Shown: positions 23,110 to 57,200, numbered from the stretch's first letter. The stretch is DNA of 64,000 bases from Desulfarculia bacterium (GCA_963662305.1 OY759352.1:818746-882745); one strand, 5' to 3'. Notes: generated by a model from the sequence alone, not told the origin. Translations and numbers: made by a program.

Positions 23110-23111
23110 CC

Positions 23112-24650: not shown

Positions 24651-24819
24651 TTTTTAGGCCTTTGCTCTATGGATTGCCAAACCATTATATCCACAGATCG
24701 AATACCATCATGAAATTGCAAAATCAACATCCAGCGATTTTCTTGTGAACTTAATGGGTTTGATATCATTTCTGGTCAATCAAAACAGGCCGCTTAGTAG
24801 CGTTGAGGGATTTTGGTAA

Positions 24820-25440: not shown

Positions 25441-25534
25441 CACCCTCGAGCAGGATCAGGCTTAGCCGACTCTTTCTTTTTTGCACCATTCTATCCCAAC
25501 CCAAGCCCATCGCTCGGATAGGACAGCCCCTCGT

Positions 25535-38148: not shown

Positions 38149-38770
38149 GCAGCCATATTGGTTTCAAGGGCCAACGGGCTGATATGCCCATCGGCGCCGG
38201 GCCTACCGGTCCGGTTGCAGTCAACTTCAATGCCTCGAAGACAGCCCGGCGCATATCTTCACGGGTGGCAATGCTCTCGCCGTGGATCAGCTCGACCTTG
38301 AGGGGCTGGTTCGCCGCCGCAGGCAAATCGTGCTTGGAATCGGTTGGGGCCCTGAACTTCCTGGCCGCCTTGGCCACCAGCCTTGCCGACGCGTGCTTTT
38401 GGCCACGGTCTTGCGGTTGTATGAATGCTCCCGCTCATCAAGATCAAGGGTCGGCCCCACCGCGCCGCTGCGGCCTTTGCGGAAGGCGGAAACCTTTGCA
38501 ACCGGTCGGTCCAGCTTCACCCGACCAAACTGCCTTTGACTTGGGTTTTGAAGCCTATGCCGCCAGGCATAGAGCTGGGAGTCGTGCAGTCCCAACTGCT
38601 CGGCCGCGCCGGCCACTCCGACCTGCTCGGCCAAGCCCAGGGCCTCAGACTCATATTCCATTGAGTAGCGACTGCGTGTTGCTTGGGTCTGCTTTTTCTG
38701 GGAGGCATGGATCACTTCCATTGAGAAATTTACTCGCTTAACGGAGTGTCCGTCAAAATTGGGTAGATCA
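38115..38770 (-). mobile_element. Internally deleted IS3-type element (656 bp) with both terminal repeats
   Basis: Ends TGATCCTACCCAGAAACAACGGACA (38115) and GTGTCCGTCAAAATTGGGTAGATCA (38770); orfA piece EALGLAEQVGVAGAAEQLGL..SQLYAWR fused to orfB scraps; no target duplication. Confidence 0.78.
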
Positions 38771-39096
38771 CTTTTCGCCGAGAATATATTATCGCTCAAA
38801 ACATAATTTTATAATTACCTCCCATTGAAAAATTAGTTAACTCAGAATACAGTATAAATATTGGAGAGGAGAATTCTGAGACGAGTCAACTTCTCAATAC
38901 ATGGTGTCGATAGAATGCGGGCGGGATCGAAATAATTCGAAGGGATTTTTACTTCTTGAGCTATGTAACTTCTATTAAGTATGAAGCTTGCCCATGGCAA
39001 CGATAGACTCATAAAAACATGAAAAAATAAATAGTAAAATAATAATAATTTGATCAATGGCCAAGTAAACATGAAGGGTGGTTGAGGGAGGTTCTT

Positions 39097-40056
39097 ATGA
39101 CCCAGAGAGAAAAGAGGGACGCACTTACCGAAAACAGGATCTTATCAGCCGTAAACCAAATTTTTCAAAAGGCGGTCACCTGCGAGAGTGAGGAAGACCT
39201 GGTCAAGAAATGCCTCTCCGTTGCCGAAAAATTGACCCAAAGCGTTTTCGGCTTTATCGGCGAGATCAACCACCGGGGGCGTTTTGACACCATCGGACTG
39301 AGTGATCCGGGGTGGGACGATTGCACCATTAACAAAGGAGGCGCCACCAAGATGATCTTGGATATGGAACTCAGGGGCATATGGTCCAGGGTGCTTTTGG
39401 ATGAAGAATCGATAATCGTCAATGACCCTGCCAGCCATCCGGACAGCGTGGGCGTTCCCGCAAACCATCCGCCTCTCATCCGGTTTTTGGGTGTGCCCCT
39501 CAAATCGGGAGGAAAAGTGACGGGCATGATCGCCCTGGCCAACAAACCGGAGGATTATACCGAGGAAGACCGCGTGACTATTGAGGCCTTGAACCTGCCC
39601 ATAATGGAGGCCCTTACCCGGAATCGGGCCGAACAGGCTCTGGCCAGGCAGGCCCAGGAGATACTGGAACTTTCCATTCCGGTGATCCAGATCTGGGAGG
39701 GAATAATCATCGCTCCCTTGATTGGCACTCTGGATTCGGAACGGACCCAGGGCTTCCTGGAAAAGTTCCTGTCAGGGATCGTCGAAACCAAATCCTCGCT
39801 GGCCTTGCTGGATATCACCGGTGTCCCCACGGTGGATACCAGAACCGCTCAGCACCTGATCGAGGCTATCACCTCCGCCAAGCTTTTGGGAACCAAAGTA
39901 ATCTTAACCGGAGTTAGGCCCAGCATCGCCCAGACCTTGGTCCACTTGGGAATTGACTTGGAGGGGATTGAGACTAAAGCCTCCCTGTCCAGTGGATTTA
40001 AAAAGGCCATCGAATTAATCGGGTTGGAAATCAAAACCAAATCCAGTCAAGTCTGA
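39097..40056 (+). CDS. rsbR: Stressosome RsbR paralog 1: GAF + STAS
   Basis: GAF with NDPASHPDSVGVPANHPPLIRFLGVPL; STAS ELSIPVIQIWEGI..PLIGTLDSER..DITGVPTVDT..GVRPSIAQTLVHLGID. Confidence 0.85.
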   Translation: MTQREKRDALTENRILSAVNQIFQKAVTCESEEDLVKKCLSVAEKLTQSVFGFIGEINHRGRFDTIGLSDPGWDDCTINKGGATKMILDMELRGIWSRVLLDEESIIVNDPASHPDSVGVPANHPPLIRFLGVPLKSGGKVTGMIALANKPEDYTEEDRVTIEALNLPIMEALTRNRAEQALARQAQEILELSIPVIQIWEGIIIAPLIGTLDSERTQGFLEKFLSGIVETKSSLALLDITGVPTVDTRTAQHLIEAITSAKLLGTKVILTGVRPSIAQTLVHLGIDLEGIETKASLSSGFKKAIELIGLEIKTKSSQV

Positions 40057-40097
40057 ATTAGGTAAAGTTTAGTGTCGCAAAAGAAAGGAAGAACCGG

Positions 40098-40910
40098 ATG
40101 ACCTGTAAGGTTAAGAAAGACGATATCCACAAAACTGTCCTTGAGGCCATGGATGAGGTCATCTATGTGGCCGACCCTGATACCTATGAGGTTCTCTACG
40201 GCAACCCGGCCATGAAAAAGGTGTGGGGGGAGTGCGAGGGCCGGATCTGCCATGAGGTTCTCCAAAACAGATCCGATCCTTGCCCTTTCTGCACCAATGA
40301 TCTTATCTTCGGCGAATATTTGGGGCGTTCCTATGTCTGGGAATTCCAAAACGAGCTCAGCAAGGGTTGGTTCCGCTGCGTTGATAAGGCCATCGACTGG
40401 CCGGACGGGCGGAAGGTCCGCTACGAGATGGCGGTTGATATCACCAAGCAAAAGGAGGCTGAGGAGGTAGTCACCCGGCAAAGCCAGGAGATAATGGCTC
40501 TTTCAACCCCGGTGATAACGGCCTGGGAGGGAATTATGGTCGCCCCCCTGATCGGTGTGCTGGATTCCCAGCGGGCCCAAAGGTTCATGGAAAGGCTGCT
40601 GTCCTCAGTGGTCGAAACCAAATCGCCTATTGCCCTGGTAGACATTACCGGCGTACCCGTCATCGACACCCAAACAGCCCAGTACCTGATCGAGGCGGTC
40701 ACGGCCACCAGGCTTTTGGGCTCCAAGGTGATCATAACCGGTATCAAGCCGGCCATAGCCCAAACCCTGACGCATCTTGGATTTTCCATGCCGGACGTCA
40801 TAACAGAGGCCTCTCTGGCAAATGGCTTTAAAAAGGCTCTCCAGATGCTGGGGCTGCATATATCCTCCGGAAACGGAGCGGCCCGACAAGAAACCCGGGA
40901 GGAGGATTAG
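40098..40910 (+). CDS. rsbR: Stressosome RsbR paralog 2: Cys-rich PAS + STAS
   Basis: PAS with CEGRICHEVLQNRSDPCPFC; STAS LSTPVI.AWEGI..PLIGVLDSQR..DITGVPVIDT. Confidence 0.85.
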   Translation: MTCKVKKDDIHKTVLEAMDEVIYVADPDTYEVLYGNPAMKKVWGECEGRICHEVLQNRSDPCPFCTNDLIFGEYLGRSYVWEFQNELSKGWFRCVDKAIDWPDGRKVRYEMAVDITKQKEAEEVVTRQSQEIMALSTPVITAWEGIMVAPLIGVLDSQRAQRFMERLLSSVVETKSPIALVDITGVPVIDTQTAQYLIEAVTATRLLGSKVIITGIKPAIAQTLTHLGFSMPDVITEASLANGFKKALQMLGLHISSGNGAARQETREED

Positions 40911-40914
40911 TCGA

Positions 40915-42243
40915 ATGCCTTGCAACTCGATAACCGCTCCCCTGGGAGAGGGCTTCTACCGGGAAATAGTTGAACAAACTGAAGATCTCATCACCATTGT
41001 TGACCGGGAAGGGAAGATCCTTTTCGTAAATAAGGCCGCCGAAAAGGTGTACGGCCATTCCCAGGAAGAGTGCATCGATAAGCCGGTCTTTAGTTTTATC
41101 CATCCCGATGATTCCCGAAAAACCCAGGAAGCCTTTCAGGACTGGTTGGCCCGGGGTTTGGACTCGACAACATTCGAAAATAGACAACTGAGCGCCACCG
41201 GCCGGGTAATCCACATGTATTGGACGATTTCCTTTATCAGAGACGACCGAGGAGAGCTTAAGACGGTCAAAGGCATCGCTCGGGATATAACCCAGCTCAA
41301 GGAAATGGAATCACAGCTCAAACAGAAATCGAGCGAACTCAATAAACGGGTCAAGGAGCTGACCTGCCTTTACCGGCTGGCCGAAGTAGTGGAAGAACCC
41401 GGAACTGATATTCCCACCATCATGACCAAGGCGGTCCAGTTGCTCCCTTCCGGGTGGAAGTATTCGAATATCGCCTCCGCCCGGATCGTTATTGAGGGGC
41501 GTGAATATATCGCACCGGGATTCAACCCTTCTCCCTGGCGGATATCCCGAAGGCTCATGGTAAATAAAGAAGAGATCGGCGAGGTGGAAATCTATTACCA
41601 CGAGAAAATGCCAGATGCCGACGAAGGGCCGTTTTCCAAGGATGAGAGGTCTCTCATCAATGCAATCGCCGAGCGTTTATCCAGAGCCTGGGATCGTATC
41701 AGGACCCAGAAGTTGCTGAAAGAACATAAGGACTCCTTGGAGGAATTGGTCGCCCAACGAACCGCCGAGCTTGAACACAAAATAAACGAGATAGAAGAAA
41801 GAGAAGAGACCATCACCCAACAAGCCGTCGAGATCATGGAGCTATCGACTCCGGTCATCCAGGCTTGGGAAGGGCTGGTTGTGGTACCCATGATCGGAAT
41901 CCTGGACAGCCAGCGGACCCAGCAACTTCTGGATCGTTTTTTGGAGCAGGTGGTGGAGACAAAAGCGTCGATCGCCCTCATGGATATCACCGGCGTTCCC
42001 ACCATCGATACCCAGACCGCACACCACCTGATCGAGGCAGTCACCTCAGCCAGGCTTCTTGGAACAAGAGTGATAATCACGGGCGTCAGGGCCAGCATCG
42101 CCCAAACCTTGGTCCAACTGGGTGTTGATCTCAGCTGGATTGAAACAAATTCATCCCTGATATCCGGAATGCGATCCGCATTCAGACAACTAGGTTACAG
42201 GATAAGCGGTGGGATGTCTTCTGGAATGGAGGTACCACAATGA
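40915..42243 (+). CDS. rsbR: Stressosome RsbR paralog 3: PAS + GAF-like + STAS
   Basis: PAS (IHPDD..ARDIT), RVKELTCLY..LPSGW.Y domain, coiled coil LEELVAQRTAEL, STAS ELSTPVIQAWEG. Confidence 0.85.
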   Translation: MPCNSITAPLGEGFYREIVEQTEDLITIVDREGKILFVNKAAEKVYGHSQEECIDKPVFSFIHPDDSRKTQEAFQDWLARGLDSTTFENRQLSATGRVIHMYWTISFIRDDRGELKTVKGIARDITQLKEMESQLKQKSSELNKRVKELTCLYRLAEVVEEPGTDIPTIMTKAVQLLPSGWKYSNIASARIVIEGREYIAPGFNPSPWRISRRLMVNKEEIGEVEIYYHEKMPDADEGPFSKDERSLINAIAERLSRAWDRIRTQKLLKEHKDSLEELVAQRTAELEHKINEIEEREETITQQAVEIMELSTPVIQAWEGLVVVPMIGILDSQRTQQLLDRFLEQVVETKASIALMDITGVPTIDTQTAHHLIEAVTSARLLGTRVIITGVRASIAQTLVQLGVDLSWIETNSSLISGMRSAFRQLGYRISGGMSSGMEVPQ

Positions 42244-42629
42244 CGGTCGAGTCGGTTTCAGTCAATAAGGTGAGGAATGTTCTTCTCGTTTCTGTTCCGC
42301 CTGATCCGGAGGATGGCATTATTTCCAGCCTTCAAGAAAAAATCCTGGACAGCATGGAGAGATACCATGATCTGCAAGGACTCATAATCGATATATCGAT
42401 GGTCGACACCATGGACTCCTACTTTGCCCGGACCATCATAGAGACGGCCGAGATGGTCCGTTTGATGGGCGGGTTGACCATTGTGGCCGGGATGGCGCCC
42501 AGCGTGGCCATTACCGCCACCCAATTGGGGCTGACTTTCGAAAACCTGTCAACAGCCCTGGATGTTGATTTAGCCCTGGATATGATGCTTGAGAAAAAGG
42601 GCGTGGGGGTTTTTGGTGAAAATTATTGA
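42240..42629 (+). CDS. rsbS: Stressosome scaffold RsbS (single STAS)
   Basis: GLIIDISMVDTMDSYFARTI (phospho-Ser position as in DSF of RsbS), RLMG..TIVAGM.PSVAIT..LGL..TALD. Confidence 0.9.
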   Translation: MTVESVSVNKVRNVLLVSVPPDPEDGIISSLQEKILDSMERYHDLQGLIIDISMVDTMDSYFARTIIETAEMVRLMGGLTIVAGMAPSVAITATQLGLTFENLSTALDVDLALDMMLEKKGVGVFGENY

Positions 42630-43041
42630 CAGTGATTCCCAGGGGCAGACTGAGATTAAGGCTGAAAGCGACATGGTCGCTGTCCGGAAAATCGTTCGGG
42701 AGAGGGCTCAGACCTTGGGGTTTTCTATGACCGAAGTGACCAAAGTCGTCACCGCCGCCTCGGAGCTGGCCCGTAATATTTACAGATACGCCGACAAAGG
42801 GATCATGAAATGGTACCTTTTGCGCAGGGATTCGCAGCAGGGCTTGGAATTGGAGTTCGTGGACAACGGGCCGGGCATTGATAATGTTGAACTGGCCATG
42901 TCACCGGGATTCAGCACCGCCAAGGGTTTGGGATTGGGCTTGTCAGGGGCCAAACGCTTGATGGACGAAATGGAGTTGGACAGCAGATCCGGGCAGGGAA
43001 CCAGAGTGGTCATCCGGAAATGGGTAAGTAATGCGAGATAA
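42616..43041 (+). CDS. rsbT: Ser/Thr kinase RsbT
   Basis: TKVVTAASELARNIYRYA, DNGPGI, GFST..GLGLGLSGAKRLMDE, GQGT.V...KW; GTG start 42616 assumed. Confidence 0.9.
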   Translation: MKIIDSDSQGQTEIKAESDMVAVRKIVRERAQTLGFSMTEVTKVVTAASELARNIYRYADKGIMKWYLLRRDSQQGLELEFVDNGPGIDNVELAMSPGFSTAKGLGLGLSGAKRLMDEMELDSRSGQGTRVVIRKWVSNAR

Positions 43042-44095
43042 GCAACAGCCGGATGAGCAGGAGTCGGGTGACGAATCATTGTCCCGAATTTCCCGCAGGT
43101 TCACCGTCAATACTTCCTCAGACGTGATTGTCGCCCGCCGGGCCTGGCGAAGCCCTATAGCGGATCTTGGCTTTAATGAAAACGCCCAGGCGGAAATCCA
43201 GTTGGTGATTACGGAACTGGGAACCAACCTGGTCAAGCACGCCGGTGGAGGAGAAATATTAATCGAAGGAGTCAGCGACGGCGAACGCCGAGGACTAAGA
43301 ATAGAGACAAGGGATGAAGGCCCCGGCATAGCCTGCCCGGATGAGGCCCTGTCGGATGGATTCTCCACCTCCGGCGGTTTGGGTTACGGGCTGGGGACAG
43401 TCTGCCGTCTTGCCAGCGAGTTTCATATCTCCCCTCCTTCAATGGATAAGCGGGGGGCGCACTTGGTGGCGATTCGGTGGCTGGATCCAGACCCGAAACT
43501 TCAAAAGCGGCCTCCCTTGGATATTGGAGTGGCGACCCGTCACCATCCCGGCATGAAAGTCAACGGGGACGGGTACGTGTTCGAAAATTGGAACGGCTCG
43601 ACCTTGGCCGGGGTAATAGACGGTTTGGGACACGGCCACTTTGCTCACAAGGCAACAGTTACCGCGATCACCCACATTCGCCAATGTTACCGAGATGATC
43701 TGCCTACCCTTTTTCGGGGCGTGGCCAGGGCTTGCCGGCCCACCAGGGGCGTGGTCATGACTCTGGCCCGGTTCGACTCGGAATCGGCCGGGTTGACTCT
43801 GTCCGGGATCGGGAATGTGGAAGCCAGGCTGATAAGGGAGGACGTCTCAACCAGCTTTGTCTCCAGGAGGGGCATTTTGGGGGTGCGCAGTCCAAACCCC
43901 TCCAGCGAAAATTACGTTTGGAGAGCGGACTACATTCTGGTTATCCATTCAGACGGTCTAAGCGCCAGCTGGCGGCCGCGCGATTTCGGCAGTTTATGGG
44001 ACGGCTCCGCCCAATTGATCGCCCGTGACCTTTTAAAGGCCAAATCAAGAGATCATGACGATGCCACGGTTATGGTTATCAAGGGGTCAAAATGA
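43031..44095 (+). CDS. rsbX: RsbT-like HATPase fused to SpoIIE/PP2C phosphatase (RsbX-like)
   Basis: TELGTNLVKHAGGG, DEGPGI, GLGYGL; NGDG, VIDGLGHG, GIGNV, HSDGL, DDAT. Confidence 0.82.
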   Translation: MRDKQQPDEQESGDESLSRISRRFTVNTSSDVIVARRAWRSPIADLGFNENAQAEIQLVITELGTNLVKHAGGGEILIEGVSDGERRGLRIETRDEGPGIACPDEALSDGFSTSGGLGYGLGTVCRLASEFHISPPSMDKRGAHLVAIRWLDPDPKLQKRPPLDIGVATRHHPGMKVNGDGYVFENWNGSTLAGVIDGLGHGHFAHKATVTAITHIRQCYRDDLPTLFRGVARACRPTRGVVMTLARFDSESAGLTLSGIGNVEARLIREDVSTSFVSRRGILGVRSPNPSSENYVWRADYILVIHSDGLSASWRPRDFGSLWDGSAQLIARDLLKAKSRDHDDATVMVIKGSK

Positions 44096-47000
44096 AAGGT
44101 AAAAAAGAGGGCAACGGGTTCCCTGAGCCGTCACTGGGAAGCGGGGATAAAGCCGGGGCTGATCCCAATTTGAGTCTTAAAAAAGCCCTGGATCTCATAG
44201 TGTCCCTAAGGGCCGAACTGTCGGAGGCCCATAGCGAATTGGCCCAGACCAATCAGGAGTTGCTCCAACTCACCCTTGAATTTGAGGATCGGGTGGAGGA
44301 ACGGACAAACGAACTGTTCAATTCACGCGAAAAGCTAAAGAAGGAGATCGAAGAAAGAAAAGCCGCTCAAAAAAAATTGAAAGAGAGCGAAAGATATTAT
44401 CGCTCCATGATCGCCAAACTCCATGAGGATATCATGGTTATCGATCGTGATTATGTGGTAGTTGACATCAATAACTCGTTTCTCCAGACCTATGGTGCTA
44501 CCCGGAAGGAAGTAATTGGGAAATATTGTTACAAGGTAGCGGCCGGTCATCCCGGGCCATGCTGGCAACATGGGATTGACTGTCGTATCGAGAGCGTTTT
44601 CTCCTCCGGAGAACCAAGCCAATGCATCATCAAACAACAACGCCTAAACGGCTCTGAGCTGTATCTGGACACCATTCTCTCCCCCTTAAAGGATAACAAC
44701 GGAGAGGTGATACAGACCATAGTAGCGGTCAGGGATATAACCCCTCTGATTCGCGCTCAGGAGGAGTTGGCCCTCCAAGAGGAAAAGTACCGGAATCTGG
44801 TGGAGACTTCACCCGATGCGATATTAGTATTTGATAAAAAAGGAATCATTGAATTCGCCAATAAAACCGCCGGTTTGTTGTTCAGTAAAGGAAAACAGAA
44901 AGAGCTGATCGGTTGCAGGTACTTCGATTTTATTCCGCCTTCCAACCGGGAGCTGTCCAAAGAGCGGGTTAATGAGCTCTCCCGAGGGAATAACGTATCT
45001 TTCCGGGAGCACAAGGTAAAGGCTTTTGACGGGCGGGAGCTGGAGGTCGAATCCAGCGGTACCGCCTTCAAATATCGGGACAGAGTCCTTTTCCAGGTGA
45101 TAATCAGGGATATTACGGAACGTAAGGCCGGAGAAAGAAAACTCAAAAAGGCCCTGGCTGATTCCAGGTCCCGCCGGAGAGAGATTTCGGCTCTTCTGGA
45201 GGGCGCGGAAGCCTTACTTGCCCAAAAGGATTTCGAAGTAGCGGCCAAAGGGCTATTCAACTCCTGTTGTAAGGCAATAGGCGCTACGGCCGGCTATATG
45301 GCTCTTCTTAACGAGGACACAGGAAACAATGAAGTTTTTTTTCTTGAGTCCGATGGAAAGGAATGCGTGGTCGACCCGGAGTTGCCCATGCCCATCAGGG
45401 GATTGCGCGAGGTGGCCTACCGGAAAAAACAACCTGTGGTGGAGAACGATTTCTCTGAAAGCCGTTGGATGGAGCTCATGCCTGCCGGTCATATCCGCCT
45501 GGACAATGTCCTTTTCGCTCCGCTTATAATGGGAAACCGGGCCGTGGGTCTCATCGGCCTGGCCAATAAACCCGGAGGGTTCAACGATGAGGACAAAAAA
45601 CTGGCGGCCGGATTCGGCGAGTTCGCTGCGCTGGCCCTGAGCCAAAGTCTGGCCGATTCGAGATTGAAAGAGAGCGAGGAACGTTACAGGTCTCTCTACG
45701 ATGACGCTCCCAGCGGCTACTTTTCCGTCAGTGCCCATGACGGCAGAATTATAAGAAGCAACAAAATGGCCCAGCGGATGTTGGGCTATAGTGCGGAAGG
45801 GTTGTCTGGAAGTAATTTAATGGATATTTATGCGGACACTCCCGCAGGCAAGCCCCGGGCAGCGGAAAGGTTTAAAAAAATCCTGGAGGGAGAATCGATT
45901 CGCGACGAAGAAGTAGAGTTGCTGAGGTCGGATAAACAGACCATATGGGGCAGCCTCCAGGTCACCCCCATTTTCGACAAAGATGGAAAGGTGGTGGAGA
46001 GTCGTTCGGTGGTCATCGACATCACTGAAAGGAAAAACCTGGAGGGACAACTTAGGCAGGCCCAAAAGATGGAGGCCATCGGAACCCTGGCCGGAGGCAT
46101 AGCCCACGACTTTAATAATATTCTAACTCCTATCATGGGATACTCCGAACTGCTTCTCAGCGAAACGCCCCAGGATCACATGAATTATCACATGTTGGAG
46201 CAGATTACCAAAGCCAGCCGGAGAGCGCGTCAATTGGTCCACCAAATCCTCACTTTCAGCCGTCAATCGGTGGAGGAGAGAAAACCGCTGATTTTAAATC
46301 CTACCGTTAAAGAGCCCATAAAACTCCTCAGGGCCTCCTTGCCCGCCAGCATTGAGATAAGAGAAGGTATCACCTCCCAAGACCTGGTTGTTTTGGCTGA
46401 CCCGGTTCAGGTGCATCAGATAACCATGAACCTTTGCACCAACGCGGCCCACGCCATGCCCCAGGGCGGAACCCTGGGGATAAAACTAGAAAAAAGAAAA
46501 ATAGAGAATGCAAACGAAGAAGATAGAGCCCTTCCAAGGGGGGATTACGCCTGTCTGACCGTCAGCGACACTGGCACCGGGATCCCGCCGGAGATTATCG
46601 ACCGGATTTTCGAGCCTTATTTCACCACAAAGCCTACAGGGAAAGGCACCGGCCTGGGACTGTCTATAATCCACGGCATCATTAAGAATATGGGCGGAAA
46701 TATCGCCGTACAGAACGATCCCGGTCAGGGTGCCAGCTTCCGGGTATTGCTCCCCCTGTATCAGGAAGAGACCACGGATCAGGACAATAAAAAGGCAATT
46801 CGGGTGGAGGGCTCCGGCAGTATCCTTTTTGTGGATGATGATGAGATGATCGTGGAGATGGTCTGCCATCGACTCTCCAAATGGGGCTTCAGGGTAACCG
46901 GACTTACCGATTGCCGCCAGGCTCTGGACCTGATTGAAAAGGACCCCTACTCATTCGATCTGGTTATCACGGATCTTAGCATGCCCCATATGGAAGGCAC

Positions 47001-47196
47001 GGAAGTAGCCCAACGCATCAGAAAGCTGAACCCTGATGTCCCCATCATCTTGAGCACGGGATTCAGCCGCGATCTGAGCGAGGACGATTTGAACAGCTTC
47101 GGCATCAACGCCCTAATCATGAAGCCGGTGGTGGATCAAGAATTGACTGCCTTAATAGACAAGCTGCTGGCTGGAAAAAAACTAGGCGGGAGCTAA
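44092..47196 (+). CDS. Cytoplasmic hybrid histidine kinase (coiled coil-PAS-PAS-GAF-PAS-HisKA-HATPase-REC), stressosome output
   Basis: QAQKMEAIGTLAGGIAHDFNN, NLCTNA, DTGTGI, FEPYFTTK..GTGLGL, REC VDDD..ITDLSMP..KP; ATGA-type overlap with rsbX. Confidence 0.92.
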   Translation: MKGKKEGNGFPEPSLGSGDKAGADPNLSLKKALDLIVSLRAELSEAHSELAQTNQELLQLTLEFEDRVEERTNELFNSREKLKKEIEERKAAQKKLKESERYYRSMIAKLHEDIMVIDRDYVVVDINNSFLQTYGATRKEVIGKYCYKVAAGHPGPCWQHGIDCRIESVFSSGEPSQCIIKQQRLNGSELYLDTILSPLKDNNGEVIQTIVAVRDITPLIRAQEELALQEEKYRNLVETSPDAILVFDKKGIIEFANKTAGLLFSKGKQKELIGCRYFDFIPPSNRELSKERVNELSRGNNVSFREHKVKAFDGRELEVESSGTAFKYRDRVLFQVIIRDITERKAGERKLKKALADSRSRRREISALLEGAEALLAQKDFEVAAKGLFNSCCKAIGATAGYMALLNEDTGNNEVFFLESDGKECVVDPELPMPIRGLREVAYRKKQPVVENDFSESRWMELMPAGHIRLDNVLFAPLIMGNRAVGLIGLANKPGGFNDEDKKLAAGFGEFAALALSQSLADSRLKESEERYRSLYDDAPSGYFSVSAHDGRIIRSNKMAQRMLGYSAEGLSGSNLMDIYADTPAGKPRAAERFKKILEGESIRDEEVELLRSDKQTIWGSLQVTPIFDKDGKVVESRSVVIDITERKNLEGQLRQAQKMEAIGTLAGGIAHDFNNILTPIMGYSELLLSETPQDHMNYHMLEQITKASRRARQLVHQILTFSRQSVEERKPLILNPTVKEPIKLLRASLPASIEIREGITSQDLVVLADPVQVHQITMNLCTNAAHAMPQGGTLGIKLEKRKIENANEEDRALPRGDYACLTVSDTGTGIPPEIIDRIFEPYFTTKPTGKGTGLGLSIIHGIIKNMGGNIAVQNDPGQGASFRVLLPLYQEETTDQDNKKAIRVEGSGSILFVDDDEMIVEMVCHRLSKWGFRVTGLTDCRQALDLIEKDPYSFDLVITDLSMPHMEGTEVAQRIRKLNPDVPIILSTGFSRDLSEDDLNSFGINALIMKPVVDQELTALIDKLLAGKKLGGS

Positions 47197-47582: not shown

Positions 47583-49091
47583 GTAAGCGTCTTATTGGGT
47601 GCTTCTACTCCGATTGAAATTTATCTGTCATATTGAGTTCCATCGCATGGAGGGTCTCAATATGGCGACAAGTAAGCGAGCGAAGGAACTGGCAGCGAAG
47701 GGCAAGTATTGGAGGAGTCATGTAGCTGCCTGGTCCGACAGCGGTCTGAGCCAGGCCGAGTATTGGCGGCGGTATGGGCTTAAGGCGCACAATTTGTGCT
47801 ACTTGGGTGGAGAAGTTGGGAGGGGCGCGGCCGGTCGGGCTTTCGGCCCCGGAGGCGACTTCATCGGTTGAGATGGTGGAAGTGGATTTCCGGGGAGCAG
47901 GCGAAGCAGTCCCCATGGCCGAATCATCTCCCTTGCGGATAGCCATCGGCGAACGCTTCCGGATCGAGGTAAGAGGCGATTTCGATGCGGCCGTTTTTGA
48001 GAAACTGGCCCTGAGCCTGGCCCTGATTTCGGATCGTCTGGCGTGATCGGGTTGGGCCCGAACAGCCGGGTCTATCTGGCCTTGGGCGCAACAGACATGC
48101 GCAAGGCCATCAACGGGCTGTCGCTCCTGGGGTGGGCGGCCATCTGGATTTAGACGTCTTCACGGGCCGCCTGTTCGCTTTTTGTAACCGGGCCCGGACG
48201 ATCATCAAAATCCTGTACTGGGACCGGAACGGCTTTTGCCTGTGGCAGAAACGGTTGGAGAAACATCTCTTCCAGTGGCCCGAAAGCCGGGACCAGGTCT
48301 TGGAGATAGGCTTCCGGGAACTGGCCTGGCTGTTGGAAGGTCTCGATATAGAACGGGCCAAGGGTCATCCGAGAATAAGTTATTCAACCCTGTTCTAAGG
48401 CTGAAATAGATTGCCCAAACTGACTGATTGGTGTATGTATACAGTCAGTTATGAACACTTCATCCCTGCCGGATAATCCTGATCGGGACACCATAATCGC
48501 CGACCGCGAGGCTGAGATATATCGCTTGGCCGAGCAGGTCCGCCTTCTCAAGGCGCTCCGTTTTCAGGCCCAGTCGGAGAAATCCAGGCCTCATGGCCAC
48601 GAAGTCCAATACTCGCTCTTCAACGAGGCCGAGATGGTCGCGGATGAAGCCGAGGAAGACGACGACAAGGAAACCCAAGTCGGCGCCCATACCCGCAAAA
48701 AGCCTGGCCGGCGGCCCATCTCGCCCGACTATCCCAGGGTCGAGGTGGTTCATGACATCCCGGAAGATGAAAAGGTATGTGGCTGCGGCTGTGAACTGAC
48801 CCGGATCGGCGAGGACGTCAGCTAAAAGCCGGACATCACCCCCCAAAAGATCCAGGTCATCCGCCACATCCGGCCGAAATACGCATGCAAATCATGCGAG
48901 GGCGTGGAGGACGAAGGCCCGACCATCAAAATAGCGGCCATGCCGCCCCAGATCATCCCCCAAGGCATTGTAACCCCGTCCCTTCTGGCCTACATCCTGG
49001 TCAACAAGTTTGCCGACGGGCTGCCTTTCTACCGCCAATCGGCCCTGTTCGACCGCCTGGGCGTGGATCTTTCCCGGGCGACCATGCCCGG
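47583..49091 (+). mobile_element. IS66-family element, 5' half (tnpA, tnpB, tnpC N-terminus; all degraded)
   Basis: TIR GTAAGCGTCTTATTGGGTGCTTCT; tnpA 47662-48046 and tnpB 48043-48398 (TDMRKAING, KILYWDRNGFCLWQKRLEK) frameshifted; tnpC from 48451 with in-frame TAA 48823, ends at SRATM at the IS21 junction. Confidence 0.85.
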
Positions 49092-49971
49092 TGTAAAAGG
49101 CGGAGAGAGAATGTACCAGTGGACGGCCGAAAAGGAGGCGAGAAGGCCGGTTGAAAAATGTACCACTGGCGCCCACTCCATAGTTCGAGTTGAATCGAGC
49201 GTTGGAGGGGTGGAGGATGTACGGCATGGAGATATACGGGAAGGTCCGCCGGGCCTGTATGGTGGAGGGGATGAGCCGCCGGGAGGCGGCGCGTAGATTC
49301 GGGATAGATCGCCGGACGGTATCCAAGATGCTGGAGCATTCGATTCCGCCGGGATATTGTCGAGAGAAGCCGGCCAGGCGGCCCAAAACGAGGCCATTCC
49401 TTGGGATAATCAAACAGATATTGGAATAAGACAAGGATCGCCCGAAGAAGCAGCGTCACACGGTGAAGCGGATCTTCGAGCGGTTACGGGACGAGTTCGG
49501 ATATACGGGCGGCTTGACAATGGTCAAGGATTACGTCCGCGAACTGCGCTTTTGATCCAAGGAGATGTTTGTGCCCTTGGATCATCCACCGGGCGATGCC
49601 CAGGTCGATTTTGGAGAGGCCCGGGTAATAATCGACGGCGTTTTACAAAAGGCCCATTATTTATGCCTCAGCCTGCCCCAGAGCGACGATATGTCCGTGA
49701 CCGCGTTTCCGGCCGAGAGGATCGAGGGTTTGTGCGAAGGGCACAATCTGGCCTTTGCCCATTTCAGTCGAGGAGTCAACCAGGGTCCGCTCAACCTCTC
49801 TGGTCCGATTCAAGGCATGCGACTACTCGGTCCCGTCTGTTTACGGCCACCAGGAAGTCCTGGTCAAGGGCTATGTCCACCAGGTGGTGATCGTCTGCCA
49901 AGGCAAGGAGATCGTCCGTTATCCCCGGTCTTACGAAAAAGAGGACCTGGTTTATAATCCCTTGCACTATA

Positions 49972-50126
49972 TAGAGCGGTTTCATAAATATGTTTCGAAA
50001 GAAGACCGCTCTAAGCGGACCGGACACGGGCCGCCGGTCGCTAAGCGACCGTAAGCCGGGCCAAAACCGCGCTTTTGGCCCGGCGGTCCCTCAAAAACAC
50101 GGAACGTGTTTTTGAGGCTTACTCTA
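49972..50126 (+). mobile_element. Multi-hairpin MITE inserted at a TA in istA
   Basis: Bounded by TAGAG..CTCTA; removal (153 bp) restores CAC TAT ATA AAG ATC (PLHY-I-KILERKP); four internal hairpins. Confidence 0.75.
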
Positions 50127-50518
50127 AAGATCCTGGAGCGTAAACCAAATGCCCTGGACCAGGCCGCGCCGCTCAAGGGCTGGGAGCCGCCTCAAGAGTT
50201 CAACCGCTTGCGCCGGCTCCTGGAACGGCGCTCGGGGAAAAAGGGAAAGCGGGAGTATATCCAGATCCTGAGGTTGCTGGAGATCTTTGACCAGGCCGAG
50301 GTCAGGGCCGGGATCAAAGCGGCCCTCGGCTTGGGTGCGGTCTCCTACGACGCGGTCAAGCATCTGGTCCTGTGCCGGATAGAAGATAAAACGCCCCGGC
50401 TGGACCTTCAAAACTACCCCCATCTGCCCAGGGCCAGGGTCGAGACCACCTCGGCCAAATCCTACACGGCTCTCATGCCCGGGGCGAGTTCATCAACAGG
50501 CGGGAGAATGTCCTGGCC

Positions 50519-50953
50519 GTGGGCAACTCCGGAACAGGCAAGACCCACCTGGCCTTGGCCCTGGGCCTCAGCGCCTGTCAGAACGGCTTTAAGGCCAAGT
50601 TCACCACCGCCGCCGCCCTGGTCAACGAGATGATCGAGGCCAGGGATGAAAAACGGCTCCTTAGGCTTCAAAAACAGATGGCCGGGGTTAATCTCCTGAT
50701 CATCGACGAGCTGGGCTTCGTGCCCTTCTCCAAGACCGGGGCTGAACTACTCTTTGAACTGATCCCGCAAAGATATGAACGCGGCTCGATCCTGATCACC
50801 ACAAACCTGCCCTTTGACCAGTGGCCCGACGTGTTCGGCTCTGAACGCCTCACCGGTGCTCTCCTGGACCGCCTCACCCATCATGTTCACATCCTAATGA
50901 ACGGCCACAGCTATCGCCTCAAGGAATCCAAACGGCTAACAGGCAATACCTGA
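50519..50953 (+). pseudogene. istB: IstB ATPase, N-terminally truncated
   Basis: Walker A GNSGTGKT, Walker B LIIDE; N-terminal part deleted and fused to istA end. Confidence 0.8.
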
Positions 50954-51562: not shown

Positions 51563-54268
51563 TCATCCGTCCAGCACATCTCGTACAGTCTTCAGCATCT
51601 CGGCTTGGGTGAACGGTTTCGGCACAAATCCGGCCGCCCCCAAAGACTCTATATCCTTCGACTGACCTTCGCTCGAATAGCCGCTGGAGATAACCACCCT
51701 TGCCTTGGGATTAATTTTTAGCAATTCCTGGAGGCACTTGTTGCCGCCCATGCCCGGCATGCTGACGTCGAGGACGACGAGGTCTATACCTGCCGCTGTC
51801 TCCCGGTAAATCTCAAGAGCCTCTTCCCCGGTTCCGGCAAGAAGAATCAGGTAACCTTGGCGAGTCAGTATCTGTTTCCCCAGATCCCGGATGCTTTCCT
51901 CGTCATCAACCAGGAGGATGGTCTCCCGGCCGCCCGATATCTTCGTGTCCACCAACCTTTCGTAAATAACGGCTTCATCGGTTGCCTGGACGGCAGGTAG
52001 GTAAATCTTAAAAATGGTTCCCTGGCCTGTACCGCTTTCACAGGTGATGTGCCAACCGTGGCCGACAACTATTCCCTGGACCACCGAAAGGCCCAACCCG
52101 GTTCCTTCACCGACTTTTTTGGTGGTAAAGAAAGGGTCGAACATCTGTTTGATAGTGGCCTTATCCATGCCGATTCCACTGTCCGATATACTTACCAGGA
52201 TGTACTCTCCGGAAAAAATTTGGCCGCAGATTAAACACAACTCGCCTTCGGCCATCACGGATTCGGTTTTGATGCAAATCGATCCACCGGCGGGCATGGC
52301 TTGGTAGGCGTTGGAACACAAGTTCACCATAACTTGTTCAAGCTGATTGGGGTCAGCCTTGGTCATTTTTATCTCTTTGGACAAATTCAGACTGACCTCG
52401 ACCATTTTGGGCATGGTTTTTTCAATAAATCCCAGCGACCTGGTCACGACCTTATTGATATCTATCGGCTGTTGGACGGATTTGTGCTTATGGCTGAAGA
52501 TGAGTATTTGTTTTACCAGGTCCCGGGCGCGTTTGGCTGACTTGAGGATAATGTTTAATTGGTTGGTAGTTGGTTTCCCGGCCCTATTCCCATCCAGGGC
52601 CAGTTCGGTGTAGCCCATTATGGCCGTCAGAATATTGTTGAACTCGTGGGCCACGCCGCCGGCCAAGGTGCCGACGGAAGCCATCTTTTCGGACTGATGG
52701 AGCTGAGACTCCAAGCGTGCCTTTTCTTCCTCGGCCAGCTTGCGTTGGGTGATGTCCCGGGCGAAGAGAACGGCTTTGCCCTTCAGTTCCGAGGGCCTGG
52801 TCAGGCTGATCTCCAAGTCGACTATCGCCCCGTCCTTGCAACGCCAGCTTTTTTCAAATCGCTCGGTCCCGTTGGCGGCGATTTGCCAGAAACGTTCAAG
52901 GGCCTCCTCGGCCTCCTCTTCGACCAGGACATCCTCCAGCGACAGGGCCAACAATTCTTCCCGGCTGTAGCCGCTCTTCTGGCAGACGGCCTCGTTGACA
53001 TCAATGAACCGGCCGGCCGGGTCGAGGAGCATGAAACCGTCGCTGGTGGTGGCCAGGATGTTGTTCCTTTCGGCCAGGGCGATCCGCTCCGCCTCCCGGG
53101 CCTGCTGCTCGGCCAGGACCGGGGCCAGTTGATCGGTCAGCCTCTCCAGCATGGCCATCACCTCCGGCGTGAACCGATCCGGACGGGTGTCATTGAGCTG
53201 GAGCAGCCCCAAGGTGCGTCTCCAGGCCCTTAGGGGAATGAGGGCGACCGACTCGTAGCCCTCCCCGTGACAGCGATTCCTGGTTCGGGCCTGACGGTCG
53301 GCCTCTGTGGTAGAGGCCAATAAAGCGGTGGTGCTGTTGGTCCAGAAGCTTCCGTTTTGGGTGAAGAAGGGCAGGTCGGGGTCAAACCGGCCGGAGATGA
53401 CGTTACCGCACATGCATTCCAGCACCGGGTTCCCCAGGTCGTCCCTGATCGTCCGCCCCGACCCGTCGGTGGCGCAGAGATGATTCTCGGCCGCGACAAA
53501 GCCTTTTGGAAGGCCCTGGGTTTCGAAATAGGGGTAGTCATCGCCCTTCTTCAATCTCAGGCCGACCGCCTCGATATTCAGCCACTTCCGCAAATAGCTG
53601 GTCACCCGCCAAGCCGCGGTTTTGTCATCAATCGAGTTATTGACCAAACCGATTAACTCAAGGGTGTTTTCCCGCTCCTCTTCCAGTCTCTTGCGCGCGG
53701 TGATGTCGATCAGGGTCGAGCGGCAGCCGGTTATCCGCTCCGCTTCGTCCCTGATAGGCCGGCTGTCCAGGCGGACCCATTTCACCGGAAGGTCCTTTGG
53801 GGTGAATTTCAGTTCGCAGGGCTCGTCGGCGCCTTTCTCCAGGACCTGTTGCCTGTGCCTGACCAGACGCGACAGGTTTTCCGGATCGAGAAGGGGGGAC
53901 AGGCCGAATTTCAGGAGATACTGGCGTTCCTGTTCCAACATCATGGTCAGGGTAAGGTTGGCCTCGGTAACCTTGCCGTTTTGGTCGAAGATCAGGTAGC
54001 CCACCGGGGCGAATTCGAAGAGATCCTGGTATCGCTCACTAGTTCTGGCCAGGTCCTCCTGGGTGGCGATCAATTCCTCGTTCTGGAGCCTGAGCTCGAT
54101 CTGGTGAACCTCCAGCTCGTGGATAAGCTCCAGGACCCTGTCGTCTTCCGGCTGAACCGCTTCCCGGGGCCGGCGGCGCAGGATATCCTCGGCCAGGCCT
54201 CTCAGCTCGTCCAGCCGGCGGTCTGGCGGGTGGTCCCGGTCCAATTGGTTTTCCTTTTTTGGGGTCAC
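51563..54268 (-). CDS. Hybrid histidine kinase (coiled coil-PAS-Cys-rich GAF-PAS-HisKA-HATPase-REC)
   Basis: LIHELEVHQIELRLQNEEL N-term; GAF NHLC..ECMCGNV..RNRC; HEFNN H-box; FFTTK..GTGLGL; REC LDVSMP. Confidence 0.92.
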   Translation of the reverse strand: MTPKKENQLDRDHPPDRRLDELRGLAEDILRRRPREAVQPEDDRVLELIHELEVHQIELRLQNEELIATQEDLARTSERYQDLFEFAPVGYLIFDQNGKVTEANLTLTMMLEQERQYLLKFGLSPLLDPENLSRLVRHRQQVLEKGADEPCELKFTPKDLPVKWVRLDSRPIRDEAERITGCRSTLIDITARKRLEEERENTLELIGLVNNSIDDKTAAWRVTSYLRKWLNIEAVGLRLKKGDDYPYFETQGLPKGFVAAENHLCATDGSGRTIRDDLGNPVLECMCGNVISGRFDPDLPFFTQNGSFWTNSTTALLASTTEADRQARTRNRCHGEGYESVALIPLRAWRRTLGLLQLNDTRPDRFTPEVMAMLERLTDQLAPVLAEQQAREAERIALAERNNILATTSDGFMLLDPAGRFIDVNEAVCQKSGYSREELLALSLEDVLVEEEAEEALERFWQIAANGTERFEKSWRCKDGAIVDLEISLTRPSELKGKAVLFARDITQRKLAEEEKARLESQLHQSEKMASVGTLAGGVAHEFNNILTAIMGYTELALDGNRAGKPTTNQLNIILKSAKRARDLVKQILIFSHKHKSVQQPIDINKVVTRSLGFIEKTMPKMVEVSLNLSKEIKMTKADPNQLEQVMVNLCSNAYQAMPAGGSICIKTESVMAEGELCLICGQIFSGEYILVSISDSGIGMDKATIKQMFDPFFTTKKVGEGTGLGLSVVQGIVVGHGWHITCESGTGQGTIFKIYLPAVQATDEAVIYERLVDTKISGGRETILLVDDEESIRDLGKQILTRQGYLILLAGTGEEALEIYRETAAGIDLVVLDVSMPGMGGNKCLQELLKINPKARVVISSGYSSEGQSKDIESLGAAGFVPKPFTQAEMLKTVRDVLDG

Positions 54269-57200
54269 GCTCCACCGGGTCCTTCCCGCCCTGGTAGAGC
54301 CACCAAGGCGATAGTGATGCCCACCACATGGCCGGACGCATTGCGCAACGGCTCCACGGTCAAGTCGAAATGCCTTTGTTCGCCCTGGACGGTCAGGGTT
54401 GCTGCTCGCCTCTCACCGACCCCGGTGTCGATGACCCCGGCCTTGATTCTCTTCAGCTCGGCGGCCTCGTCGGGAGGGAACAGATCGGCGTCGGTCCGGC
54501 CGATGAGGGCCTTGTCGCTCCAGAGCGACGCCCCGTCAGGCGCCCAGGTGTAGCGCAGGTCCAGGTCCTGGTTAAAAACCATGGTCCGGGAGGCTGTCAG
54601 GGCCACCCGGAATCTCTCTTCGCTGACGATCAGCTTTTCCTGGGTTTTCTTCTGAGCGGTGATGTCGCTGAAAGTGAGCACCACCCCGTCGATGACGTTA
54701 TCCGTGGTCCGATAGGGCATGATCCTCATCTGGTACCAGTTGCCGTCCCTCGATCTGACCTCCGCCTTCCTGGTCGCCAGGGTTTGCAGAACGTTTTCCG
54801 CGTCCTTAATCAGCGCTCCGTATTCCAGGTTGTGGACGATGTGCTCCAAGGGCCGGCCGATATCCGTTTCGATCAGGTTGACGATGGCCGTTGCCTTGGG
54901 GGTGAAACGCCTGACGGACAGCTTCTGGTTCAGGAAAATGGTGGCTATCTCCGTGGCGTTGAGCAGGTTCCGCATGTCGTCGTGGACCAGGGTGAGTTCA
55001 TCGATCTTGGCCTGCAACTCGGCGTTGACCGTGACCAACTCCTCGTTGAGGGACTGCTGTTCCTCCTTGGACGACTCCAACTCCTCGTTGGTCGACTGGA
55101 GCTCCTCGTTGGTCGATTTAAGCTCCTCGTTGGCGCTCTCCATCGCCTCCACGGTGGCATGATGGACCTCGTGGCTGTACTGCAACTCCTTTTCCAGATC
55201 TTCCCGGCGTTGGCGGTCCCCATCATTGCCCTTTTTTCGTTTTTTGGTCTTGGTCGGGGTTGGCAGGACCGCCTTTTCCTCAAAGACCACCAGCAAAAGG
55301 CCCCCGCCCGCGTTCGGTTGAACGAGCGGCTCCACGGTCAGGTCGACCAGCCGGGAATCGCCGTTGGCTTTGACCGCCAGGTCCGGCCGACGGGCTTTTT
55401 CGCGGGTGGCCGCGGCCCGGCGGATGAGCGAGCTAAGCTCCCCCCGCAAGCCCTCCCGGGCCATGTCCAGAATATTGAAGTTGGCCGGCCCGGAGGCGGG
55501 CTCAAGGTAGTTGCCGGTGCGGCCCTGGATGAAACGGATGTTGCCCTGGTTGTCGATGACGACCCCGGCCGGGGTGTATTCGCGGAGCATTATTTGCTGG
55601 GTCACGGCGGCCAGGTCGGGGAGGGCGGGATGCGGGACCAGTCTGGATGTCGGATTGGTCACGGGCTGGGCTGTCCATGGCCCGGTGGGGAAATCGATCA
55701 CCGGCTGGGCCAAGGGAGACGGTTCCTTGCGGCGGAATATCTTGGCCTTGCCGTCGAGGGCTTCGAACAGGTCGCCGAATCGCCCGATGGATTCTGACGA
55801 GCCGATGACCAGGAGGCCAGCCGGCTTGAGGGTGTAGTGGAACAGCGGTATTACCTTTTTCTGGGCCGGGGTGTCGAGATAGATCAATAGGTTGCGGCAA
55901 CAGAGAAGGTCGAGTCTGGAGAACGGCGGGTCCTTGAGAATGTCCTGAACCGAAAAGACGATGTCGTCCCTTATCTCCTTCTTGACCCTGTAGGTGGAGT
56001 TTTCCTTGATGAAGTACCGCTGCAGCCGCTCCGGACTTATATCGGCGGCGACGCTGCCGGGGTAGATTCCGGCCCTGGCCTTTTCGATGGCGTAGGGATC
56101 TATATCGGTGGCAAAGACCTGCAGCCCGAGCTCCTGGCCGAACTGGGCCATGACCTCCCGCAAAACCATGGCCAGGCTGTAGGCCTCCTCCCCGGTGGAG
56201 CATCCGGGAACCCACACCCGCATCGTTTCGCCGGGGCCCAGCCCGGCCAGACTGCCCGGCAGGACCTTCTCTTGCAGGGAAACGAAGGACTTCGGGTCCC
56301 TGAAAAAGCCGGTCACCCCGATCAGGATTTCATGGAACAGGAGCTCCACCTCGGCCGGGTTCTCGGTAAGATAGCGAACGTAGGTCGAGATTTTATCGAT
56401 CTTGTTGACGCTCAGCCGCTTCTCGATGCGGCGGCGGATGGTGTTGGTTTTGTAAAGAGAGAAATCGTGGCCTGTCTGCCGGCGCAACTGCAGAAAAATC
56501 TTGGCCAGGGAGCCCTCGGTTTTTTCTTGGAGCACGGTTCTCTTTTTCCCTCGCGACATAGCTGGATGGCTGAAATATCCGGCCAGCCGGGCCGGCATCT
56601 GCTCGGGCGGCAGGGCCAGGTCCACCAAGCCGGTGGCCCGGGCGGCCTGGGGCATGCCGTCGTACTTGGCCGAGGCCTCGTCCTGGGCCATCACCAGCCC
56701 ACCCCGCCCCTTTATCTCCCTTATCCCCAGGGTGCCGTCGGAGCCGGTCCCGGACAGGATTATCCCGGTAGCCCTTTCGCCCAAGTCCTCGGCCAGGGAG
56801 CGGAAAAAGCTGTCTATGGGCAACCGGAGACCGCCGGTCGCCGCAGGCGCAAGCAGGTGGAACACGCCCTTGAACAGGGCCATGTCCCGGTCGGACGGGG
56901 AGACATAGACCGTGTTGGGGCGAAGCTTTGCCCCGTCCTCGGCCAGTTGGACCTTCATCCCGGTGTGCTTCTGAAGCAATCCGGGAAGGATAGTTTTTCG
57001 GGAGGGGTCGTGGTGGACCACGACGCAAAAAGCCATGCCGGTGTCGTCGGGCAAGGCGGTGAAGAACCTCTCCAGCGCCTCCAGGCCGCCCGCAGAAGCG
57101 CCCAGGCCGATAACGGGAAAGGTTGCCGCCGTATTCGATTCGGGGTTCAGGGACGGATCGGCGGCCGGGCCGTTCTTTTTCCTTCCGGAAGATGTCGTCC

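Follow-up and report, generated by a model that had tools for sequence, protein, structure and literature searches.

A likely stressosome-type operon with three tandem RsbR sensors and a hybrid histidine kinase output in a Desulfarculia bacterium

We analysed a 64,000-nt stretch of DNA from a Desulfarculia bacterium (GCA_963662305.1, OY759352.1; C2:818746-882745 in our genome coordinates), hereafter the window. Its positions 39097-47196 on the plus strand carry seven tightly packed genes in one orientation (R1-R2-R3-S-T-TX-HK), namely three rsbR paralogues, rsbS, rsbT, an rsbT/rsbX fusion that we call TX, and a hybrid histidine kinase (HK). We consider it likely that this is an intact, probably horizontally acquired, stressosome-type partner-switching operon that has the HK as its output and works as proposed below. 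An initial annotation of the same DNA had described seven co-oriented, mostly overlapping genes over this interval; all seven are present on the plus strand and their Pfam domains agree with that description. The fusion of T and X that it reported is real as well, with HATPase_c_2 and SpoIIE domains in one open reading frame (ORF). The features, in positions of the 64,000-nt stretch, are listed here.

38742..39096 (+): leader and likely promoter region, AT-rich, 355 nt, GC 0.352 vs. 0.527 in the operon
39097..40056 (+): rsbR1, DosS/DosT-like GAF and RsbR-type STAS (Pfam GAF_2 9e-22, STAS 1.8e-12)
40098..40910 (+): rsbR2, three-Cys PAS and STAS (Pfam PAS_8 2.7e-5, weak; STAS 8.8e-14)
40915..42243 (+): rsbR3, PAS, GAF-like domain 'CLY', helical linker and STAS (Pfam PAS 5e-17, STAS 7.6e-12)
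42240..42629 (+): rsbS, single-STAS scaffold protein (Pfam STAS alone)
42616..43041 (+): rsbT, GHKL-type switch serine kinase (Pfam HATPase_c_2)
43031..44095 (+): TX, RsbT-like kinase domain fused to an RsbX-type PP2C (Pfam HATPase_c_2 and SpoIIE/PP2C)
44092..47196 (+): output hybrid HK, 1034 residues (Pfam PAS x3, GAF, HisKA, HATPase_c, REC)
44179..44316 (+): N-terminal helical output motif of the HK, residues ~30-75 (motif profile and conserved residues)

Most components of the switch have relatives in known stressosomes. The best PDB matches of RsbS were B. subtilis RsbS (6jhk, 3.1e-16), Listeria (6qcm), Moorella MtS (2vy9) and Vibrio (7o0i), and its Ser60 aligns with Ser56, the target serine of Listeria RsbS (PMC9237128, available text). 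The STAS half of R1 matched Listeria RsbR (1.8e-31) and Vibrio RsbR (1.8e-26). Ser219, Thr253 and Thr285 of R1 (numbered on the 324-residue ORF that starts at 39082) fall on positions T175, T209 and T241 of Listeria RsbR, while the phospho-sites are occupied by Ser157 and Thr191 in R2 and by Ser363 and Thr397 in R3 (numbered on the ORF from 40822); in all three paralogues, T175 corresponds to a retained Ser and T209 to a retained Thr. In RsbT, N63, D92-G94-G96 and G115-G117 are invariant across 67 orthologues and the position of the gene between S and TX is kept in related loci; its PDB similarity is to SpoIIAB only (~1e-5, at the family level). The PP2C half of TX found just two relatives in the PDB, Moorella MtX (3zt9, 6.6e-13) and B. 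subtilis RsbX (3w40, 1.9e-5). Its metal-binding aspartates (D197, D308, D343/D344) are invariant in 26 homologues, as are N66, D95/G97/G99 and G118/G120/G122 of the kinase-like half. The sequences of RsbS, the RsbRs and the RsbX-type half are those expected of a stressosome RsbRST(X) module, and the earlier stressosome-type reading of R, S, T and X stands on the RsbS and R1 matches, the retained phospho-acceptors and the restriction of the PP2C matches to MtX and RsbX. The assembly that marks a stressosome is a pseudo-icosahedral particle of RsbR and RsbS (~1.8 MDa) in which RsbT is sequestered. Since family searches of the whole genome placed no further STAS, HATPase_c_2 or Sigma70_r2 match inside C2:818746-882745, the window holds no sigB, rsbV or rsbW, as had been noted before. 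The whole-genome STAS search returned no RsbR-like protein outside the operon.

The same arrangement is widespread. TX has 2278 homologues of similar length (out of 7340 word-sharing candidates), and 465 genomic relatives were confirmed on contigs representing one genome per species, from many bacterial phyla and several archaea. The best 80 of these 465 made up our locus census. The order R(n)-S-T-TX was found in 74 of the 80 loci, in many phyla, and the other six were interrupted by contig ends; because of this recurrence, the arrangement lies far beyond chance. The kinase-phosphatase fusion is the norm in this large class. Short relatives of the PP2C half numbered 17 among only 38 word-sharing candidates, too few for a ratio of fused to unfused forms. 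Pfam annotation of 90 RsbR-like ORFs from the census showed that the usual RsbR is a single PAS-STAS protein of ~280 residues. Other heads included protoglobin (6 loci), GAF (10 loci) and, in a few cases, REC and NMT1-like domains, and the Bacillus RsbR_N family had no match at E<=1e-4 among the 90 ORFs. The gene following TX was scanned in 57 loci, with those that had a short or no ORF called there excluded. Histidine kinase domains were encoded in 53 of them (15 of the 57 genes are hybrid kinases), and the remaining four encode GGDEF-EAL or GGDEF-HD proteins, that is, cyclic di-GMP (c-di-GMP) enzymes, three of which accompany protoglobin RsbRs. In one locus (L060) the output kinase is almost identical to that of the window in architecture and length, and related loci frequently end at the kinase gene. 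Within the window's own phylum, T was followed by TX in 12 of 13 loci fetched.

Some census loci depart from the common layout or have unexpected hosts. Two separate rsbT-like genes stand in tandem before TX in two Dehalococcoidales loci (L006:3562-4432 and L017:9247-10117). R-S-T-TX-kinase loci also occur in archaeal contigs (L014, L037, L038, L045, L062 and L074), whose holders are haloarchaea, Methanotrichaceae, a Helarchaeota metagenome-assembled genome and an uncultured archaeon; of the two RsbRs in the Helarchaeota locus, one has a head of the NMT1-like, periplasmic-binding type. A locus of the phylum sample (L083:5486-8071) has the order R-S-X-T, with an X of 339 amino acids whose N-terminal half has no Pfam assignment, and the output motif described below was not detected downstream of it.

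The last gene of the operon is the candidate output. The HK contains two PAS domains (residues 114-218 and 231-340), a GAF domain (380-516), a third PAS domain (530-646), HisKA (664-725), HATPase_c (770-890) and REC (911-1022), and its catalytic residues are in place (His672, N-box 780, G1 826, G2 852, Asp961), as would be expected of a functional hybrid histidine kinase. Residues 1-103, on the other hand, had no Pfam match even at E<=10, and this includes RsbU_N. A helical segment of ~40 residues in this region recurs in the output proteins of related loci. A profile hidden Markov model (HMM) built from 22 seeds matched 59 of 63 downstream proteins (from 62 other loci, plus the window HK) whatever their output domain, including all four c-di-GMP enzymes encoded downstream of TX. 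Among 4350 ORFs from the 80 loci and part of the window, all 71 matches lie directly after TX on the operon strand (these 71 include nine loci whose downstream gene had been missed by the first ORF pick). In the genome of the window the sole match among 18750 ORFs is this HK (residues 48-75, E 2.5e-6), and an HMM of the N-terminal 30 columns, which leave out the part presumably similar to a generic signalling helix, likewise found only this HK in the genome (E 0.011), in two pieces around a 7-residue insert. The motif is specific to the output proteins of these modules, and an alignment of 56 sequences shows L39, E49, L50, T53, N54, L60 and E63 to be conserved in it. Chance adjacency of the HK to the module was considered and is rejected because of the synteny and the output motif. 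The link to the kinase drawn in the initial annotation is backed by the same two lines of evidence, with the action of RsbT on the kinase as its predicted part.

In 6 of the 13 own-phylum loci, the motif and kinase are preceded by a T-like domain in the same protein. Such natural fusions argue that the T-like domain and the motif work together. The six fused outputs (L084:7556-9166, L087:6353-7711, L090:183-2303, L092:3999-5342, L093:5470-7650 and L094:6415-7758) consist of an RsbT-like HATPase_c_2 domain, the motif and HisKA-HATPase_c, to which L090 and L093 add two REC domains, and each locus with a fused output has three T-like domains in all. A complex prediction from alignments, with RsbT and two copies of HK residues 28-105, gave a median score of 0.44, with one control at 0.35, which counts neither for nor against docking.

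These results leave two candidates for the protein that would dock on the motif. RsbU is activated when RsbT binds its N-domain and orders a coiled-coil linker, a mechanism proposed to be general for kinases and cyclases (PMC12143880, available text), and RsbT is also the released partner in the systems studied so far as these are described in the available parts of PMC12143880 and PMC9237108. It is possible, but in our view rather unlikely, that the messenger to the HK is instead the RsbT-like N-domain of TX. RsbT would then only phosphorylate the STAS scaffold, and TX would both reset the scaffold and gate the HK via its N-terminal motif. Such a role would suit the TX N-domain, which retains all ATP-binding residues, and the TX gene, which always adjoins the output gene and overlaps it in the window. 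The profile scores of the fused T-like domains speak mostly for RsbT: in 4 of 6 outputs the tethered domain scores better with the RsbT profile than with that of the TX N-domain, and in the other 2 the two profiles score equally. In the loci examined, the motif was seen only with TX-type modules, which would also fit a TX messenger; however, all of these modules have a fused RsbX and none a single-domain RsbX to compare.

The three RsbR heads differ from one another. The only PDB matches of the R1 GAF domain were the heme-binding GAF-A domains of DosT (2vzw, 2e-9) and DevS, with E values from 2e-9 to 9e-8. His129-Pro130 of R1 is invariant in 10 of 10 GAF-RsbR orthologues, which are 51-58% identical across phyla, and His129 aligns with the His of the HPP segment of DosT/DevS, which we take to be the heme ligand (His149). 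Judging from its sequence relationships, R1 probably senses gas or redox state through a heme. The heme-gas function guessed in the initial annotation gains from this exclusive kinship and from the invariant His, and heme binding itself stays a prediction.

The head of R2 was modelled by AlphaFold2 as a PAS fold (mean predicted local distance difference test score, pLDDT, 91.5), and its top Foldseek matches were LOV/PAS domains. All 11 aligned modules share C51, C62 and C65, and R2 also has the acidic E53. In the available text of PMC8359166, the ligands of the redox-sensitive [4Fe-4S] cluster in the OrpR PAS domain are C52, C61 and C65 together with an acidic residue at position 54. By analogy, the R2 head is probably a metal or Fe-S redox sensor; the Fe-S/thiol role suggested previously is favoured by three invariant cysteines at OrpR-like positions, with cofactor binding as the conditional part. 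Fusion partners of the R2 head among its best 120 relatives are STAS, kinase, GerE, GGDEF, PocR or REC domains. The same genome encodes two more proteins that each contain an R2-type three-Cys PAS module (C1:2960476-2965077, 1533 amino acids; C1:2763537-2767430, 1297 amino acids). The first PAS domain of the HK has a three-Cys cluster of its own with neighbouring His residues (window 44527-44586, residues 146-165); its Cys spacing is unlike that of the R2 module, and the search with the R2 head gave no match there.

R3 has ~170 residues between PAS and STAS without a Pfam assignment. Within them lies a 148-residue domain that we call CLY (R3 residues 166-313, window 41317-41760), which had no Pfam match even at E<=10. 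Its AlphaFold2 model from a 20-sequence alignment is of high confidence (pLDDT 93.2), and the best Foldseek matches of this model were GAF domains at borderline values (E ~2e-3, template modelling score ~0.6); the predicted fold is that of a reduced GAF domain. CLY homologues are numerous (8548 representatives at E<=1e-3, with up to five copies per protein), and one Cys and an EGPF-type segment are invariant. A second copy is encoded in the same genome (C2:1479837-1481720).

A neighbourhood search for three adjacent RsbRs, which the initial annotation had proposed as a check, covered 72 other loci in which the sequence extends 1 kb or more upstream of the first RsbR, after two ORF-overlap artefacts had been set aside. 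One RsbR was found in 62 of the 72, two in 6 and three in 4, and three tandem RsbRs are accordingly uncommon but recurrent. The sensor modules are shuffled between loci. GAF and Cys-PAS stand on separate RsbRs in L001, L009, L031 and L077, the order is GAF / Cys-PAS-CLY in L073, GAF / CLY / Cys-PAS in L010 and GAF / CLY-Cys-PAS / PAS in L041, and it is GAF / Cys-PAS / PAS-CLY in the window. All 8 complete loci that start with a GAF-RsbR have a further RsbR, which bears a Cys-PAS module in 7 of the 8. Since modules that are separate in one genome are fused in another, they are expected to act in one complex, and this is the strongest, though indirect, argument at hand for a multi-input particle. 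We reject a recent tandem duplication as the source of the three RsbRs, because the heads are different folds that each have 50-60% identical orthologues in other phyla.

It is nonetheless conceivable, though unlikely, that the gene set is as proposed and the three RsbRs form separate complexes with RsbS that compete for a common pool of RsbT, either as a particle each or, in a variant of this view, as small non-icosahedral partner-switch complexes. A single RsbR suffices in the Vibrio system (PMC9237108, available text) and is present in the 62 loci counted above, and in a poorly resolved STAS tree the R2 STAS sits apart from those of R1 and R3. However, translation of the three genes is coupled within one operon that has only one rsbS and one rsbT, and the sensor modules that are separate here are fused in one RsbR elsewhere. 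The STAS domains are also 60-68% identical to each other's nearest relatives with both phospho-sites kept, and Bacillus RsbR paralogues have been reported in common stressosomes (PMC9237128, available text). We therefore favour a single mixed particle.

Taken together, we propose that the three RsbR heads would read separate inputs, with R1 responding to a heme-bound gas or redox state, R2 to redox through a metal or Fe-S centre, and R3 through its PAS and reduced GAF-like domains. Upon a signal, RsbT would phosphorylate RsbS and the RsbRs at their conserved Ser/Thr residues and would then be released. Free RsbT, or the RsbT-like half of TX, may bind the N-terminal helical motif of the HK dimer, and docking there would raise or lower HK autophosphorylation, by analogy with the effect that RsbT has on RsbU through the RsbU N-domain and linker. 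Reset of the system would fall to the PP2C half of TX, which would dephosphorylate the STAS proteins.

All seven reading frames of the operon are intact, with ribosome-binding sites and with catalytic and phospho-acceptor residues retained. The likely start of R1 is the ATG at 39097, as annotated before, which is preceded by GGAGG (the longest ORF runs 39082-40056). R3 probably starts at the ATG at 40915, after GGAGGAGG and 4 nt past the R2 stop (ORF from 40822), and T at the GTG at 42616 (ORF 42589-43041). The R3/S, S/T, T/TX and TX/HK junctions overlap by a few bases each (4 nt at TX/HK), and the remaining junctions are short gaps of 41 nt (R1/R2) and 4 nt (R2/R3). Three sigma-70-like hexamer pairs, which are consensus matches only, lie in the leader at 38825, 38907 and 39019, and no terminator-like site was found on the plus strand before 48162. 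A search for sequencing runs listed 6 holders from 2 studies, with no run registered as RNA. An NCBIfam search of the operon proteins returned nothing more specific than Pfam.

With regard to the host, the genome contains dsrA above the curated cut-off with a dsrB-like gene beside it, and on this basis the bacterium is a sulfate or sulfite reducer; its earlier description as an anaerobe is fair. The operon differs from its surroundings in composition (GC 52.7%, compared with a genome value of 60.0% and with 64.5% in the genes immediately upstream) and is flanked on both sides by transposase debris (window 38287-38799 and 48132-50953). The upstream debris is a weak HTH_Tnp_1 ORF on the minus strand, and the downstream debris comprises three IS66 pieces (TnpB, leucine-zipper and a DDE N-fragment), a Mu-transposase C-terminal fragment and an IstB (IS21) fragment. 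Further transposases in the window belong to IS3 (13298-14179), IS4 (57708-58910) and IS66 (61845-62624). A TX gene was found in only 1 of 40 relatives, at 37% identity, and RsbS-like genes in 12 of 400 other sampled genomes of the phylum. Given the low GC, the flanking debris and the rarity in relatives, horizontal acquisition is the simplest reading, and the operon was probably acquired in this way.

Elsewhere in the window, the minus strand encodes at 51563-57303 two overlapping genes, for a second hybrid kinase without the output motif (GAF-PAS-HisKA-HATPase_c-REC, 901 amino acids) and for a 1012-residue fusion of a CheB methylesterase, a CheR methyltransferase and two PAS domains. A second low-GC stretch (12000-26000, 49-56% GC) contains the IS3 transposase, an asparagine-synthase-like amidotransferase, two radical SAM/SPASM proteins, a sugar aminotransferase and a glycogen-synthase-like glycosyltransferase. 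This stretch has the appearance of a further import, perhaps for a surface polysaccharide.

Several points weigh against the proposed interpretation, and our arguments should be read with these in mind. The window HK stands at the weak end of the motif family (7-residue insert, E 0.011 for the N-terminal part), and the C-terminal half of the motif presumably resembles a generic signalling helix. RsbT is assigned only by its family, its place in the operon and its conserved motifs. The distal tyrosine of DevS (Tyr171), which we take to tune ligand discrimination, aligns with Ala in R1, and ligand selectivity would therefore differ in R1 if heme is bound. As no sigma-54 activators occur among the best 120 relatives of the R2 head, its kinship with OrpR is one of analogy only. 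Same-locus STAS paralogues often group together in the poorly resolved tree while their heads change, a pattern that would fit co-assembly and recent duplication equally well. The locus and its close relatives are known here from sequence alone. Finally, neither an Hpt domain in the HK (Pfam) nor a response regulator gene in the operon was found, and because the operon lies between transposase fragments and is rare in relatives, its integration into host signalling is putative.

In a further reading, which we regard as improbable, the operon is a passenger of recent import with no connection to host physiology, and is silent or orphaned because no phosphotransfer partner arrived with the hybrid HK. 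The low GC relative to the genome (0.527 vs. 0.600) and upstream neighbours (0.645), the transposase fragments on both sides and the scarcity of TX and RsbS among relatives (1/40 and 12/400) would all suit a passenger, as would the lack of an Hpt domain and response regulator in the operon. However, related loci also often stop at the kinase, and hybrid kinases commonly use unlinked partners. The seven intact frames, with their catalytic and phospho-acceptor residues and ribosome-binding sites kept, likewise speak against this reading.

In a broader sense, the route by which stressosomes outside the Firmicutes signal to outputs that lack RsbU_N was stated as an open question in the Vibrio work (PMC9237108, available text). 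The output motif, present in this operon and in most related loci examined, offers a concrete and mutable candidate for this link, to which the T-like fusions add support. The RsbR heads of this operon also have plausible, testable ligands (heme and Fe-S), whereas the activating signals of classical RsbRs are largely unknown. The census widens the picture of stressosomes, with PAS as the usual head, a reset phosphatase that usually has a kinase-like domain, and sensor modules that are shuffled. With a fused phosphatase, an output motif and shuffled sensors in hand, the question of how a stressosome reaches a kinase becomes directly testable. A more far-reaching and tentative idea, which we put forward as possible while expecting that it may well fall short, is that fused-RsbX rsbRST modules form a large unstudied branch of stressosomes, bacterial and archaeal, in which a ~40-residue helix on the output enzyme, be it a histidine kinase or a c-di-GMP enzyme, receives the released switch kinase in place of RsbU_N. 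The window would then be a three-input version (heme GAF, Fe-S PAS and GAF-like) with which a sulfate reducer merges gas and redox signals into one phosphorelay.

Compared with described systems, the closest overall organization is that of Vibrio. The available text of PMC9237108 reports that the four-gene rsbRSTX module is widely distributed, archaea included, and coupled to two-component or c-di-GMP outputs, which agrees with the background given in the initial annotation for RsbRST modules outside the Firmicutes. It describes globin-headed RsbRs, RsbX as a single-domain PP2C and most outputs as being without RsbU_N, and it detected no interaction between RsbT and D1. As here, the order in Vibrio vulnificus and V. 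brasiliensis is R-S-T-X followed by a hybrid sensor kinase (the D1/D2 output), and both they and the window are without a sigma factor, RsbU/V/W and RsbU_N on the output, as far as the available text of that work describes them. They have one heme-globin RsbR with no paralogues and a single-domain RsbX, whereas the window has three non-globin RsbRs and a fused RsbX.

The systems of B. subtilis and Listeria (RsbRA-RD, YtvA, RsbS, RsbT and RsbX) share with the window several RsbR heads on a conserved STAS domain, the acceptor Ser of RsbS and two RsbR sites, and RsbX as the reset phosphatase. Their paralogues are scattered, have non-heme globin or LOV heads and act through RsbU/V/W on SigB; those of the window are in tandem in one operon with an HK as output, and have Ser instead of Thr at the first RsbR site. 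Moorella thermoacetica MtR-MtS-MtT-MtX-MtG is likewise a minimal RSTX module, and its output is an enzyme and not a sigma factor. Among solved structures, MtX is nearest to the TX PP2C half (6.6e-13), yet it is a single domain of 193 residues, and MtG is a GGDEF protein said to carry RsbU_N (PMC12143880, available text), in place of which the window output has a different motif of ~40 residues.

The sensor heads have their nearest counterparts outside stressosomes. M. tuberculosis DosS (DevS) and DosT share with the R1 GAF the His of the HPP segment, their GAF-A domains being its only PDB matches; they carry GAF-A on a kinase and have a distal Tyr, while in R1 the GAF is on a STAS protein with Ala at that position, and its heme is predicted. 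OrpR of Desulfovibrio vulgaris resembles R2 in its three cysteines (52/61/65 vs. 51/62/65) and in an acidic residue two positions after the first Cys (PMC8359166, available text). Its spacing is C-x8-C-x3-C compared with C-x10-C-x2-C in R2, and the likeness is one of pattern only. PAS-, GAF- and Cys-PAS-headed RsbRs, tandem RsbR operons, the kinase-PP2C fusion and the output motif were not found in the literature searched, which is a provisional result since older surveys may describe PAS/GAF heads or a fused RsbX. The earlier suggestion that a non-globin composition might be undescribed needs a correction: PAS, not globin, is the commonest head in this class and the pairing of GAF with Cys-PAS recurs in at least 7 other loci, and for these reasons the composition is better called unstudied than unique. 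The system is of a known kind, to which the window adds a three-sensor, non-globin variant.

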